Shown in pieces: positions 60,223 to 64,000 of a stretch of DNA of 64,000 nt. The notes beneath the pieces are model-generated. The model had not been told where the DNA came from. It ran no database searches and saw only the letters and a program-made list of their open reading frames with translations. A program made the translations under genes and the position numbers. The stretch is from positions 1 to 64,000 of IMG/VR virus record IMGVR_UViG_3300005537_000023. One strand, written 5' to 3'. The DNA is from a virus. Position 1 is the first letter of the stretch, and each line of letters starts with the position of its first letter.

Positions 60223-60530
60223 GCGCCAAGGGCAAGCCGGACGGCAAGCGCGCCGTCCTCATCACCGACACGCATCGCGGCATCTACTTCGGCTACCTCG
60301 TGGAGGAGTTGGAGGGCGGGAATGCGGTGCGCCTCGAAAACGCGCGCCACTGCTGGTCGTACGTCTGCCTCCCCGATCATCCTGGCGTGTACGGACTTGC
60401 GTCCGGTGGCCCCGGCCCTGGCAGCCGCATCGGCCCACGATGGAATGGCAAGGTGCGCGACGTCTCCAAAGTCGTCGACGTCAGCGCGTCCGCCGTCGCC
60501 AAGTGGGAGGCCGCGGAGTGGAAGCGGTAA
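60219..60530 (+). CDS. conserved phage Sm-like protein
   Basis: VLITDTHRGIYFGY...VRLENAR..W...GLASGGP. Confidence 0.75.
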   Translation: MSAKGKPDGKRAVLITDTHRGIYFGYLVEELEGGNAVRLENARHCWSYVCLPDHPGVYGLASGGPGPGSRIGPRWNGKVRDVSKVVDVSASAVAKWEAAEWKR

Positions 60531-61054
60531 ACCGGAAAGTCATCTCGGCTGGCGACGGCGGCGGCGACGGCGGCGGCGACGGCGGCGGCGGCGGCTACGG
60601 CGACGGCGGCGGCTACGGCGGCGGCGACGGCTACGGCGACGGCGACGGCGACGGCTACGGCGACGGCGACGGCGGCGGCGACGGCTACGGCGACGGCGGC
60701 GGCTACGGCGACGGCGGCGGCTACGGCGGCGGCGGCGGCTACGGCGGCGGCGGCGAGATCGAGGTTGAAGAATCGCAACCAATCGCCGCCTATCACTTCG
60801 TCCCCAAAAATGGCCTACTCCGCCATGCCCACGGCGGCCAGCGCCCGAAGGCGGAGGTGGGCCTCGTGCTGCGGTGGGAAAGCGAGTTGTCCATGTGCTC
60901 GGCCGGCCTGCACGCCTCACTCGAAATCGAACAAGCGCGCAGGTACTGCAACGGTATCCTCACCCGCGTTGCCTGCTACGGCCGCATTCGCTTCGGCGAA
61001 GACAAGCTGGTTTGCCAGGTGCGCGAGGTGATTGAAGTGCTGGGCGAGGTCTGA
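60518..61054 (+). CDS. Gly/Asp/Tyr-repeat phage protein
   Basis: GDG/GYG repeats then a CSAGLHAS domain. Confidence 0.7.
   Translation: MEAVNRKVISAGDGGGDGGGDGGGGGYGDGGGYGGGDGYGDGDGDGYGDGDGGGDGYGDGGGYGDGGGYGGGGGYGGGGEIEVEESQPIAAYHFVPKNGLLRHAHGGQRPKAEVGLVLRWESELSMCSAGLHASLEIEQARRYCNGILTRVACYGRIRFGEDKLVCQVREVIEVLGEV
60551..60753. repeat. GGC-rich coding low-complexity repeat
   Basis: GGCGAC/GGCTAC/GGCGGC units. Confidence 0.85.
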
Positions 61055-61058
61055 CGCC

Positions 61059-61547
61059 ATGCCTCACCGCCACGCCACCCCCAACCCCGCCGATCCGCGC
61101 TACCCCGACATGCTGGCCAAGCGCGCCAGCGGCCTCACCATGCAGGCCATCGGCGCCGAGTACGGCATCTCACGGGAGAGGGTGCGGCAGATCATCGGCA
61201 ACCAAGGGTATCTGCCGCCCGAGGACTGGACGGGGCGGAAGCGCCGATGGCTGACGGTGATCGATGGCACCACCTCTCCGCGCATCACTGTCCAGTGCAA
61301 GTGCGGGACGGTAAAGGAGGTGAGGCGCGGCAACTTCATGCATCCTCGCGCGTGGTCGTGCGGCTGCTACCAACGGAAGGTGGTGGGCGCCCTTCGCCGG
61401 AAGCTTTCGGACGCCGACGTGCGGCGACTGCGGCGCTGGCGCGACAACGGATGGACGTTCAAGGCGCTCGCGGCGCACTTCGGGATTAGTCACATGTACG
61501 CATGGCAACTTTACAATCGATGGCATGGAAGGAGGGCCGGGGCATGA
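61059..61547 (+). CDS. HTH/Zn DNA-binding protein built from homing-endonuclease-type modules
   Basis: GISRERVRQI; QCKCG...SCGC; KLSDADVR...AAHFGIS. Confidence 0.7.
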   Translation: MPHRHATPNPADPRYPDMLAKRASGLTMQAIGAEYGISRERVRQIIGNQGYLPPEDWTGRKRRWLTVIDGTTSPRITVQCKCGTVKEVRRGNFMHPRAWSCGCYQRKVVGALRRKLSDADVRRLRRWRDNGWTFKALAAHFGISHMYAWQLYNRWHGRRAGA

Positions 61548-63544
61548 CTGACCTAGAGGCCTATCGCGCGTTCATTGCGCGGAAGCTTGCGACGGCGCCC
61601 GTCGAAGGCATCCCCAACCACGGCCCCATCTCGCCGCTACTCTTTCCGCACCAACGGACGATGGTGGACGTGGCGTTGCGGAAGGGACGATTCGCGCTCT
61701 TCCACGACACAGGGCTGGGCAAAGGGTGGCAAATCCTCGAATGGGCGCGGCTCGTTGGCGAGCACACCGGCAAGCCCGTGCTCGTCCTAGCGCCGCTCGC
61801 CGTCGCCCGGCAATTCGAGCGCGAGGCCGCCAAACTCGGGACGGCCGTGCGCATCGTCTCGTCCGCCGCCGACGTCGGGCCTGGCATCAACGTCACCAAC
61901 TACCACAAGCTGCACAAATTCGACGTATCGGTCTTCTCGGGCGTGGCGCTGGACGAGTCCTCGATCTTGAAGTCTTTCGACGGCACGACACGCACGGCCT
62001 TGATCGAAGCCTTCGCCAACACGCCGTACCGACTTTGCGCGACGGCGACGCCTTCGCCCAACGATCACACGGAGTTGGGCAATCACGGCATGTTTCTCGG
62101 CGTCATGTCGTACGCGGAGATGCTGTCCATGTTTTTCGTGCACGACGGCAGTAGCAGCGCGTCGACGGGCGGATGGAGGTTGAAGGGGCACGCGCGCGAC
62201 GTTTTCTGGCGATGGGTTGCGACGTGGGCGGCAAGCCTTCGCCGTCCGTCGGACCTTGGATTCGCTGACGACGGCTACGACCTCCCGCCGATGACTTTCC
62301 ACGAGCACGTCATCCCCGGCGATTTGAAGCAGGCGCACGCGTCCGGCGCGCTATTCGTCACCGCCGCGTCCACGCTCGCAGAGCAACGCGCGGCACGGCG
62401 CGGGACGTTGGACGCACGCGTGGCGAAGTGCGCGGAGATCGTTGCCGCGGAACCGGACCAAGATTTTCTGATATGGGTGGACCTGAATGACGAGGGCGAC
62501 GCGATTGAAGCAGCCGTGCCTGGCGCCGTCCAAGTGTCTGGTTCTGACGACGACGATTTCAAGGTATCGGCCGCCGAGTGGTTTTCTGGAGGTTGCGCGT
62601 GTCCGTGCGGAAAAACTACTGGAACGAGCGATATCACTCGGATGAGGACTGGCGACGCGAGCGCATCGCAAAATCCAAGCAGAGATGGGAGTCGCTTCCA
62701 ATCGACGCGAGACGCAAATATCAGCGAGAGTACATGCGTGAGTACTCCAAGCGACCAGACGTCATCGCCAAACGCGCGGCCAAGCGACTTGAACGACTCG
62801 CCAAGCGACGCCAGCAGTACGCGTCCGACCCATCGCTCAGGGAGCGGTACCGACGATACGCCAAAGAATGGGCGGCAAAAAACCCGGACAAGCGTGAGGA
62901 GTGGAGGCTCAGCGCCTACGGACTCACTCAACCACAATGGGACGCCATGCTCGCCAAGCAGGGCGGGTGTTGCGCAATCTGCGGAAGGGCTAACGGGACA
63001 GAGCGTACCAGACTATCCAGGAACGGCCGTAGACGGTTGCATATCGACCACTGCCACGCGACCGGAATCGTGCGTGGACTCCTTTGCGGGCCATGCAATC
63101 TTGGGATCGGGTACTTCTCTGACGACATCGGCAAGCTCAGAAAGGCGATTCTGTACCTGCGGAAGGCCTCTCGGAGGAAGAAAGGTGCTCGTCTCTAAGA
63201 GTGCGATTTTTGGCTTTGGGCTTAACTTCCAGACTTGCTCGCGCGTCGTCTTCTGCGGCGTCTCTCACAGTTTCGAGGGGTGGTACCAGGCCATTCGCCG
63301 CGTGTGGCGATTCGGCCAGCGCAACCCCGTCAACGTGCACATGGTCACGAGCGAGTTGGAGGGGCGTGTCGTGGAAAACCTGAAACGGAAGCAGCGCGAC
63401 GCGGAGGACATGGCGCAGTCCATGGTGGCTGCGATGGCGGACTTCTGTCGCGCGGAGATTGGTGCGACGCAGAGGCAGACGATCGACTACAGCCCGACGG
63501 TACCCATGAGGGTGCCGGCGTGGTTGAGGACGGAGGGGACGTGA
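61544..63544 (+). CDS. SNF2-family helicase with a 195-codon in-frame insertion
   Basis: DTGLGKG, LDESSILK, TATPSPND, GFGLNFQ, YQAIRRVWRFGQ. Confidence 0.9.
   Translation: MTDLEAYRAFIARKLATAPVEGIPNHGPISPLLFPHQRTMVDVALRKGRFALFHDTGLGKGWQILEWARLVGEHTGKPVLVLAPLAVARQFEREAAKLGTAVRIVSSAADVGPGINVTNYHKLHKFDVSVFSGVALDESSILKSFDGTTRTALIEAFANTPYRLCATATPSPNDHTELGNHGMFLGVMSYAEMLSMFFVHDGSSSASTGGWRLKGHARDVFWRWVATWAASLRRPSDLGFADDGYDLPPMTFHEHVIPGDLKQAHASGALFVTAASTLAEQRAARRGTLDARVAKCAEIVAAEPDQDFLIWVDLNDEGDAIEAAVPGAVQVSGSDDDDFKVSAAEWFSGGCACPCGKTTGTSDITRMRTGDASASQNPSRDGSRFQSTRDANISESTCVSTPSDQTSSPNARPSDLNDSPSDASSTRPTHRSGSGTDDTPKNGRQKTRTSVRSGGSAPTDSLNHNGTPCSPSRAGVAQSAEGLTGQSVPDYPGTAVDGCISTTATRPESCVDSFAGHAILGSGTSLTTSASSERRFCTCGRPLGGRKVLVSKSAIFGFGLNFQTCSRVVFCGVSHSFEGWYQAIRRVWRFGQRNPVNVHMVTSELEGRVVENLKRKQRDAEDMAQSMVAAMADFCRAEIGATQRQTIDYSPTVPMRVPAWLRTEGT
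62599..63198 (+). CDS. recombination endonuclease VII-like homing endonuclease, nested in another frame
   Basis: SD GGAGG at 62588; YGLT...QGGCCAIC...LHIDHCH.TG.VRGLLC..CN..IG. Confidence 0.9.
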   Translation: MSVRKNYWNERYHSDEDWRRERIAKSKQRWESLPIDARRKYQREYMREYSKRPDVIAKRAAKRLERLAKRRQQYASDPSLRERYRRYAKEWAAKNPDKREEWRLSAYGLTQPQWDAMLAKQGGCCAICGRANGTERTRLSRNGRRRLHIDHCHATGIVRGLLCGPCNLGIGYFSDDIGKLRKAILYLRKASRRKKGARL

Positions 63545-64000
63545 GCGATCTTGCGGCACGCCCAACGTTGCTAGTCTCCGTGGAGAAGGCGCGCGATCTG
63601 CTGGCCAAGGCGCGCACGTTCGATGACGTGAAACGCGTGCGCGATGTCGCCGTGGCGATGCGTGCGTACGCTAGGACGCAGAAGGCCGGCCGGGAGATCG
63701 CACTCGACGCAGCCGAGATAGTCTTCCGCGCCGACGCGCGCATGGGGGAGTTGGCGAGGGGGTTGGCGAAGGTGCCGGCGGGACGTGAAAAGAATAGGTC
63801 CGGCCCTCGGACCAATTCCAAGCTCGCCACCCTCGCCGACCTCGGGGTGACGAAGCAGAGGGCGAGCGAGCAGCAGCGGGTGGCGTCCATGGGCGAGGAC
63901 GTGTGGGAGAAATACCTGCGCGCGTGCCGCGGAGAAGGCCGTGCTCCAGTGACATCCGAAGCGGCCAAGATTGCAGCGATGCCCCCGCGCGCGATGACCA
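63541..64000 (+). CDS. partial ORF resembling N-terminal domains of phage DNA methyltransferases
   Basis: RADARMGEL...TLADLGVTKQRAS..QRVA; runs off the window. Confidence 0.55.
   Translation, partial: MSDLAARPTLLVSVEKARDLLAKARTFDDVKRVRDVAVAMRAYARTQKAGREIALDAAEIVFRADARMGELARGLAKVPAGREKNRSGPRTNSKLATLADLGVTKQRASEQQRVASMGEDVWEKYLRACRGEGRAPVTSEAAKIAAMPPRAMT

Follow-up and report, generated by a model that had tools for sequence, protein, structure and literature searches.

An Endonuclease VII-like nuclease gene nested out of frame in an uninterrupted helicase gene of a virus, probably from soil

In a 64,000-nucleotide stretch of viral DNA (positions 1 to 64,000 of IMG/VR record IMGVR_UViG_3300005537_000023; hereafter the window), a phage DNA helicase gene harbors a complete Endonuclease VII-like homing endonuclease gene in another reading frame, and the helicase frame stays open across the entire insert. 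The same arrangement recurs at two sites of one helicase family. Because stop codons have been purged from the helicase frame over many diverged loci, and because no Rfam intron or Pfam intein match was found, the insert is probably translated straight through without splicing. In this reading, the helicase would carry the translated insert as a disordered loop, and the nuclease would have a separate start and spread by cutting empty alleles.

Homing endonuclease genes are usually thought to survive in essential genes by means of self-splicing introns or inteins, or else to reside between genes. A third way, in which the insert is kept in the protein as readable and harmless sequence, dates only from 2025, when it was put forward for a few mycobacteriophage genes (PMC11855218).

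The insert and the nested nuclease

The insert (585 nucleotides [nt], 195 codons; 62588..63172, plus strand) lies between the helicase residues WFSGG and RKVLVSK, and its limits follow from alignment with insert-free homologs, GC content and codon-position GC; the coordinates and the unbroken frame given in a preliminary description of this DNA hold. Its GC content is 0.56–0.63, compared with 0.62–0.69 in the 5' helicase flank. In the helicase frame, the insert reads GG-CACPCG at its start and F-CTCG-RPL at its end and consists largely of Ser (17.9%), Thr (13.3%), Gly (10.8%) and Pro (7.7%), in agreement with the Ser/Thr/Pro-rich loop, beginning CACPCG and ending FCTCG, that had been described. 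Alignment with insert-free homologs, which had been suggested as a check, finds the insert absent from the 30 phage records listed of 308, from 41 of 45 viral helicase loci and from 115 database proteins; the closest helicases (58–66% identity) are likewise without it.

The nested gene is an open reading frame (ORF) of 199 residues (62599..63198, plus strand), offset +2 to the helicase frame, whose product belongs to the Endonuclease VII-like group of HNH (beta-beta-alpha-Me) nucleases by its match to Pfam Endonuclease_7 (PF02945; E 1.6e-22, 79.6 bits, cut-off 23.6). It is preceded by a GGAGG Shine–Dalgarno sequence (62588..62592, plus strand), located 6 nt 5' of its GTG at 62599; the program-made list gives the ORF as 62578..63198, and its frame is open from 62548. 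Thus, the complete nuclease with a GGAGG of its own, as first reported, is confirmed, and so is the position of its stop in resumed helicase sequence, since the TAA at 63196–63198 falls within the helicase codons TCT AAG. The nuclease profile also matches Hpy99I (3fc3, E 8.5e-12) and T4 endonuclease VII (1e7d, E 4e-8). Its core, CAICG ... HIDHCHATG ... CGPCNLGIG (62971..63111, plus strand), was located from invariant alignment columns: C125, C128, D150, H151, C152, H153, C163, C166 and N167 (CxxC, DHCH and CxxCN) are unchanged in 5/5 aligned nested homologs. By analogy with T4 endonuclease VII, we take the CxxC ... CxxC residues to bind zinc and the D-H-x-H ... N residues to be catalytic.

A GGAGG occurs again at 63171–63175, so that this sequence stands at both junctions, as had been noted, and the same is true of TGC GGA. 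The matched GGA/GGAGG junctions were considered as a functional signal and rejected, because relatives do not conserve them. Two further candidates were discarded, namely the 3' GGAGG with the helicase-frame GTG at 63185 as the start of a C-terminal fragment, which occurs in no relative, and a frameshift fusion of helicase and nuclease as a general mechanism, given that most relatives have nuclease-frame stops 1–8 codons before the ATG. No internal promoter was found inside the helicase gene. The nuclease stop, within the helicase ORF, is overlapped by a terminator-like hairpin (63185–63204) with GATTTTTGG after it; such sites are not more frequent than expected from shuffles.

Recurrence of the open helicase frame

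Viral, metagenome and genome contigs were scanned with the nuclease and the helicase as queries, together with a search of a phage collection, and this yielded 199 loci with a relative of the nuclease, 180 of them distinct, and five more from genomes (loci are given here as L numbers and database proteins as P numbers). In 30 distinct DNA loci the nuclease lies inside a homologous helicase, at one of two insertion sites. Site A belongs to the inter-domain linker and directly precedes PWIIW, the first strand of the second RecA-like domain. Site B is that of the window; going by the order of motifs in SF2 helicases, we take the loop there to be placed in a turn between the helix ending WFSGG (F..G) and the strand VLVSK, before SK..G.GLN, in the second RecA-like domain.

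Over the whole nuclease ORF, the helicase frame is free of stops in 27/30 loci, and the third frame contains 2–21; the survey of stop-codon depletion proposed in the preliminary description thus comes out in its favor. Seventeen of the open loci are at site A and 10 at site B, the latter being the window, L086, L162, L164, L165, L167, L171 (partial), L173, L174 and L345. Relative to the nuclease frame, the helicase frame is offset by +1 in 21 loci and by +2 in 6. The GC content of the nuclease ORFs ranges from 0.39 to 0.63 across the 27 loci; in L172, at the low end (0.39), the third frame contains 21 stops and the helicase frame 0. Given that the related nucleases are only 36–50% identical to that of the window, the open frame has persisted over a long period of divergence.

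Non-nested homologs provide a control: of 107 such ORFs with 150 codons or more, two have a stop-free alternate frame, L163 and L169, and both look like derivatives of nested elements, in that L163 retains the 5' peptide of the element and L169 shows the typical host-frame translation. L163 (1–876) is a remnant in which about 20 residues of the helicase N-terminus are joined directly to an element of the site-B type; its other frame encodes the nuclease, and no C-terminal helicase part follows. Synonymous-codon shuffles (5000 for each of 11 loci, the nuclease sequence of L110 being identical to that of L108) left the helicase frame of the window's nuclease ORF stop-free in 4.3% of trials, with a mean of 2.23 stops; over the 11 loci, the probabilities of no helicase-frame stop are 0.043, 0.023, 0.0006, 0.58, 0.11, 0.006, 0, 0.0002, 0.0008, 0.003 and 0.002.

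The host frame is also under measurable selection at the level of its residues, against hydrophobic ones as well as against stops. Host-frame peptides of nested elements have a median hydrophobic fraction of 0.14–0.17, compared with 0.23–0.36 in the same alternate frame of free-standing homologs (Mann–Whitney p 2.7e-9 for the +1 class, n = 20 vs 99, and p 0.0037 for the +2 class, n = 6 vs 99; values to be weighed with care, as the nested elements share ancestry), and they are enriched in S, T, P, G, N and Q. Such depletion fits selection for a soluble, unfolded loop and makes sense only if the loop is translated. As for codon usage, the helicase flanks have third-position GC values of 0.80 and 0.82; within the insert, the value is 0.57 for the third position of the helicase frame and 0.71 for the second, which is the third of the nuclease frame. 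Because codon-position GC in the insert follows the nuclease frame, it is this frame that carries the primary coding signal there.

Split genes at site A

The three remaining loci (L175, L194 and L346), all at site A, have stops in both alternate frames. They are clean three-gene sets, composed of an N-terminal helicase half with a stop, a nuclease with its own start, and a C-terminal half, whose own ATG stands exactly at the start of the second domain (MDKWLVWC...) and overlaps the nuclease stop; Rfam gave no match on L175 and L194. The preliminary description had named homologous inserts with helicase-frame stops as evidence that would speak against it. Such inserts do exist, but as split genes at the other site and not as introns. 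At site B, the read-through arrangement was the sole one observed, in 10/10 DNA loci. At site A, one and the same problem has been solved in two ways, by read-through or by splitting of the gene.

L101, L183 and L179 were considered as counter-examples and set aside, because the nuclease in these loci is free-standing and directly downstream of an intact helicase. In L084 (3001–6100), a related helicase is broken near query residue 172 by about 1.8 kb, with a change of frame and a 299-residue ORF on the opposite strand that appears transposase-like by eye, which would make it a different kind of interruption; Rfam gave no match on this locus.

Cysteine brackets and a possible zinc clasp

The insert of the window is bracketed, in the helicase frame, by CACPCG at its 5' end (62594..62611, plus strand) and CTCG at its 3' end (63152..63163, plus strand). 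The three Cys codons of the former overlap TTG, GTG and GTG of the nuclease frame, and the latter overlaps the nuclease residues L-Y-L-R. Both are kept at site B: in all DNA loci but L167, CxC follows soon after WF.G and C[TI]CG stands directly before ..R.LISK, and L167 lacks both through two matching gaps. The closest relative, L345, reads ACPCGEKTT ... CTCGRPLG, nearly identical to the window. Among 60 site-B proteins, a set that includes the window's own product and in which some members may be products of the analysed DNA loci, 52 have CxC at both ends, 8 at neither and 0 at one only; a few use CxxC at the 3' end. Of the insert-free helicases, 118 could be assessed, with 4 fragments set aside: CxC is absent from the site in 115, a lone CxC occurs in 0, and the remaining 3 (P0003, P0018 and P0254) carry a pair with a spacer of 11–21 residues. 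No Cys pair is present in about 25/28 site-A inserts.

Just 5' of the nuclease ATG, a helicase-frame peptide, F-[SR]-A-K-L-A-x-[CW], is conserved at site B in L086 (2950–2990), L164, L165, L173 and L174, and its site-A counterpart is D-K-L-A-x-C-G-x-Q-N-T. Its codons TTT AGT GCT AAA give TAG and TAA in the nuclease frame, 4–8 codons 5' of the ATG, and third positions are conserved too. The peptide may serve to initiate translation of the nuclease, or it may belong to the clasp considered here.

That the brackets come together or not at all supports a zinc site, as the preliminary description had suggested; the co-occurrence stands, and the clasp itself is a prediction from sequence. The chances appear evenly balanced that the CxC pairs bind one zinc and so hold the loop ends together. 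A bolder version, somewhat short of an even chance, is that the brackets are a portable zinc clasp traveling with the mobile element, a protein-level substitute for splicing that would tie the ends of a junk loop of about 200 residues. The two sites agree with such a role: the loop ends at site B must stay close, which fits a clasp, and site A is a linker where a clasp is not needed and the gene can even be split. If the proposal is true, the clasp lets a homing endonuclease gene settle in a tightly folded domain, as at site B and at the site in mycobacteriophage Pacc40 compared below; P0003, P0018 and P0254, with their short spacers, would be scars of a nuclease gene that has decayed; and the clasp, together with the purging of stops and hydrophobic residues, would be a third general strategy, beside introns and inteins, for keeping selfish nucleases harmless. 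As a structural adaptation the clasp is testable, and tolerated-loop sites with a built-in clasp could serve protein engineering.

Alternatively, the brackets may not be a zinc site at all. They would then derive from a short direct repeat, that is, a duplicated target, combined with side effects of the overlap with the start codons and with Y-L-R, and this account is a substantial, if minority, possibility. TGCGG[AC] is directly repeated at both ends in the window and in L086; the both-or-neither pattern is expected from duplication as well; and the start of the ShiLan insertion, an out-of-frame nuclease insert compared below, is reported to resemble the sequence directly following it (PMC11855218). 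Part of the Cys signal is indeed forced by the overlap, as an ATG, GTG or TTG start of the nuclease frame reads in the helicase frame as TGY, TGG or TGA, of which the last is forbidden, leaving Cys or Trp, and the 3' CTCG overlaps conserved nuclease residues, [LM]-Y-L-R. These constraints count against the clasp, as does the small number of independent changes: brackets co-vary in 5/5 pairs on the helicase tree (sign test p = 0.0625), and the tree of the insert centre, that is, of the element, is without any well-supported branch and provides a weak hint only. A duplicated target, however, predicts single CxC motifs in insert-free helicases, and there are 0/118; in L086, L164, L165, L173 and L174, the 5' CxC precedes the nuclease start, in a stretch where stops close the nuclease frame; Cys pairs are nearly absent at the linker site A; and the unrelated element of Pacc40 has Cys pairs too.

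Mobility and distribution

The element is patchily distributed over the helicase family. On a tree of 156 rows (FastTree, inserts masked), for which the sample was enriched for both states and which thus speaks to patchiness and not to rates, well-supported branches force at least 14 of the 23 changes that presence at site B requires, and at least 12 of the 17 required for site A. The helicase of the window groups with 6 insert-free helicases in a clade that has 99% support. The nuclease tree (56 rows, quick method) is too unresolved for nesting origins or for separation of site-A and site-B clades.

The arrangement is common. A profile built from the helicase-frame insert of 8 site-B loci and compared with 1.84 billion representatives matched 218 cluster representatives at E <= 1e-3 (96 at <= 1e-10 and 26 at <= 1e-30), mostly helicases of 600–700 residues. 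In a set of 265 proteins, 224 are similar to helicases, and 87 of these have an insert of at least 60 residues. The element was found in soil, water and other metagenomes and in cultured Gordonia phages. The latter have the site-A form: in Malisha (gp71) and Squiddly (gp64), the match to the nuclease coincides with a gene whose sole annotation is DNA helicase, and for Malisha the position at site A and 0 helicase-frame stops were confirmed. Such cases matter for annotation, since gene-calling programs return a single long helicase and overlook the nuclease, as happened with gp71 of Malisha. For site B, a tblastn search of the phage collection with the host-frame insert of L165 gave no match in a cultured phage, a result in which the low-complexity filter may hide matches.

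Two further observations concern other host genes. The helicase gene of L168 (992–3949) is a single open frame of 985 residues with an intein in motif I and, at site A, an intein-less out-of-frame nuclease; the intein looks canonical (GLGK followed by ... LLGDG ... DTDGY ... THN and then T). In addition, a few non-helicase proteins match the insert profile and suggest further hosts: P0218, P0262 and P0235 (RNA ligase, PF09414), and P0259 (LPD29). P0218 (356 residues) is about 145 residues longer than its 20 viral homologs, whose matches span 612–654 nt, and the out-of-frame nuclease may be present in ligase genes as well.

Proposed mechanism and alternative explanations

In the preferred reading, a free-standing-type Endonuclease VII (HNH) homing gene would have settled out of frame in an essential-type helicase gene. 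Ribosomes would translate the helicase frame through all 195 codons of the insert, selection would keep these codons stop-free and poor in hydrophobic residues, and the helicase would be made with a loop of about 195 residues rich in Ser, Thr, Gly and Pro. The nuclease would be translated separately, from GGAGG-N6-GTG inside the helicase mRNA, and would cut insert-free helicase alleles of co-infecting relatives, with recombinational repair copying the element into them (homing).

Several observations weigh against this reading or limit its reach. A Shine–Dalgarno sequence precedes the nuclease start in only some relatives. For individual loci, an open frame has a chance probability that cannot be neglected (0.58 for L074, 0.11 for L086 and 0.043 for the window); the argument rests on recurrence, and the loci share ancestry. 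At site A, the helicase tolerates splitting, so read-through is not the sole solution there. Taken alone, the window is only mildly unusual, and it is the comparative data that are decisive.

The preliminary description raised RNA splicing and ribosomal bypass as alternatives. The insert would then be an unrecognised self-splicing intron, or be avoided by a very long hop between the matched Cys-Gly/GGA codons, and its open frame would have no significance. The window has TGC GGA and GGAGG at both junctions, all clasp-bearing loci have Cys codons at both ends, and Rfam covers described families only, so that a new intron class could escape it. Nevertheless, Rfam cmscan of 61000–64000 at E <= 10 returned a single microRNA noise hit (E 6.2) and no intron, so that the group I intron hit named as a counter-indication is absent from this region, and four related loci had no match at E <= 1. 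Neither splicing nor bypass would need a stop-free frame or impose selection on stops, yet 27/27 unsplit loci are stop-free with a stop-rich third frame, and the composition of the host-frame peptide is biased. Junction codons are unmatched in L162, L173 and L174. The bypass in T4 gene 60 crosses a 50-nt gap with a stop directly after the take-off codon and matched take-off and landing codons; here the distance would be about 550–585 nt, with no in-frame stop. Both routes are therefore disfavoured and must be considered very improbable. Post-translational removal by an unknown Cys-dependent reaction, in a minimal non-HINT intein-like element, is equally hard to credit. It could draw on the Cys residues at both junctions in 52/60 site-B proteins and on the related Endonuclease VII nucleases that sit out of frame in true terminase inteins, as described in part of a preprint (bioRxiv 10.1101/2025.01.02.630785). 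Pfam, however, detected no family in the helicase-frame insert of 8/8 site-B loci, HINT and intein domains included; the nuclease ORF spans nearly the whole insert, and a splicing domain would not fit beside it; the 3' Cys is preceded by F, Q, P or R and not by His-Asn, so that the earlier statement that intein termini are lacking proves correct; and eight site-B proteins, like site-A inserts in general, are without Cys pairs.

It is scarcely conceivable that the open frame is a chance by-product of high G+C, the helicase being broken or dispensable and its long ORF an artefact. The region has a GC content of 56–69%, long alternate-frame ORFs are abundant, and L074 alone would be open in more than half of its shuffles; but the 27 open loci reach down to a nuclease GC of 0.39 with stops throughout in the third frame, non-nested homologs of comparable length hardly ever have a stop-free alternate frame, and helicase motifs are conserved on both sides of the insert in one frame. 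Residence of a selfish nuclease without splicing, as originally proposed, is thus supported by stop purging and by the lack of any Rfam or Pfam splicing match.

Helicase gene and neighboring genes

The helicase reading frame is without a stop over 61490–63544, and the program-listed ORF (61502..63544) encodes 680 residues. The likely start is the ATG at 61544, which gives a probable SF2/SNF2-like phage DNA helicase of 666 residues (61544..63544, plus strand), uninterrupted by the insert and of the same form as the database protein P0001, which begins at that ATG; a Shine–Dalgarno-like GGAGGG (61531..61536, plus strand) is located 7 nt 5' of it. Matches to Pfam SNF2-rel_dom (23 bits) and Helicase_C (18.3 bits) are under the cut-offs of 24.9 and 23.5, respectively. 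The motifs GLGK, DESS, TATP and RFGQ are kept in the family alignment, and the helicase is 43–60% identical to phage proteins labelled DNA helicase, a label that homologs in cultured phages carry as well.

Downstream, a GTG at 63541 that overlaps the helicase stop begins an MT-A70 family DNA methyltransferase gene (63541..64000, plus strand), of which only the start is in the window and which continues past it; the assignment comes from the Pfam MT-A70 match on L001:2464-3561 (E 7.9e-28). The gene 5' of the helicase encodes a helix-turn-helix (HTH) protein. The order helicase then methylase is also found in related cultured phages. The virus record is 73,232 bp long with direct terminal repeats, and the sequence is present in one sequencing run, of DNA from a soil metagenome that is the likely source, with no RNA run listed.

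The ORF of the HTH protein (61032–61547) contains two HTH regions (Sigma70_r4 and HTH_23), and between them C-x-C-G ... S-C-G-C, which resembles the N-terminal zinc motif of the hidden nuclease ORF of Pacc40. The protein may be a degenerate or DNA-binding relative of homing endonucleases. Further upstream, a repeat ORF rich in Gly, Asp and Tyr (GDGGGDGGGYGDG...; 60440–61054, plus strand) lies in a stretch of 74–79% GC, where frames overlap on both strands; its other frames are poly-Arg and poly-Ala/Val repeats, and there is no Pfam match.

Comparison with known systems

Among the established arrangements, mobE in nrdA of Aeromonas phage Aeh1 is a free-standing homing endonuclease gene that splits a conserved gene without intron or intein. 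This form recurs for the present helicase at site A, in L175, L194 and L346. The helicase of the window, in contrast, is unsplit, and its frame runs through the nuclease gene. T4 gene 60, next to mobA, likewise links a mobile nuclease to an unusual rescue of the host gene, and the window shares with it matched junction codons; unlike its 50-nt gap with a stop, the window has about 585 nt and no stop, and its junction codons are not conserved.

Terminase inteins provide a parallel in nuclease family and in frame relation (frame 3 relative to the host), both being the same as in the window. In 70/80 terminase loci (the set L264–L343), the intein contains an Endonuclease VII-like ORF in another frame, the terminase/intein frame itself being continuous, and the helicase-frame insert profile cross-matches these inteins; in L264 (1501–3615), for example, the nuclease is at 2490–2762. 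The arrangement itself has been reported, from computational work, in part of a 2025 preprint on Endonuclease VII ORFs out of frame inside inteins (bioRxiv 10.1101/2025.01.02.630785). The difference is that a true intein splicing domain removes the junk peptide from the terminase, whereas no splicing domain was found in the insert of the window.

Out-of-frame nuclease inserts that lack an intein were described in 2025 for the ShiLan domain and for Pacc40 gp60, again computationally (Arsenault et al., Genes 2025, PMC11855218); the comparison draws on the passages of that paper devoted to them. The ShiLan insertion, like that of the window, is in a conserved phage gene, with a stop-free host frame and no intron or intein signature; it too is patchily distributed, and the insert was proposed to stay in the protein as a loop. 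The host of ShiLan is a methylase and that of the window an SF2 helicase. The ShiLan nuclease is, according to the paper, an HNH nuclease with flanking zinc fingers, whereas that of the window belongs to Endonuclease VII (PF02945), the two being compared by description. No ribosome-binding site was found for ShiLan, in contrast to GGAGG-N6-GTG in the window. The same passages of that paper do not include stop-depletion statistics, a metagenome survey or Cys brackets in the host frame; cysteine and zinc are mentioned there only for the nuclease frame and for intein chemistry. In full-text literature searches, no intein-less Endonuclease VII element was found in this helicase at sites A or B, nor were statistics on stops or hydrophobicity, split-versus-read-through alternatives or host-frame Cys brackets, on the understanding that supplements may list further hosts, including helicases, and may hold more.

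Pacc40 gp60, a mycobacteriophage helicase–methylase fusion (L243, 3102–7127; NC_011287.1), is more closely comparable in its host gene, as its helicase part is homologous to that of the window (39% identity over query residues 14–252). Its RefSeq name is "anaerobic ribonucleoside reductase large subunit", although it is a helicase–methylase fusion with inserts, and gene 63 of phage Veteran has the same product name. As in the window, the host frame of gp60 is open through the insert, with a nuclease ORF in the other frame. The insert occupies a third site, after RPSDI at query residue ~253, and its nuclease of 159 residues is unrelated, with no tblastn match to that of the window at E <= 1e-3. 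In the host frame, it starts CRCLC and ends CPC, and the insert-free gp60 of LastJedi is without both. The protein also holds an intein, and this arrangement comes from one phage only (2 of 102 matching records). Overall, the arrangement is already in print, and the window is another case of it, with the clasp as a possibly new feature.

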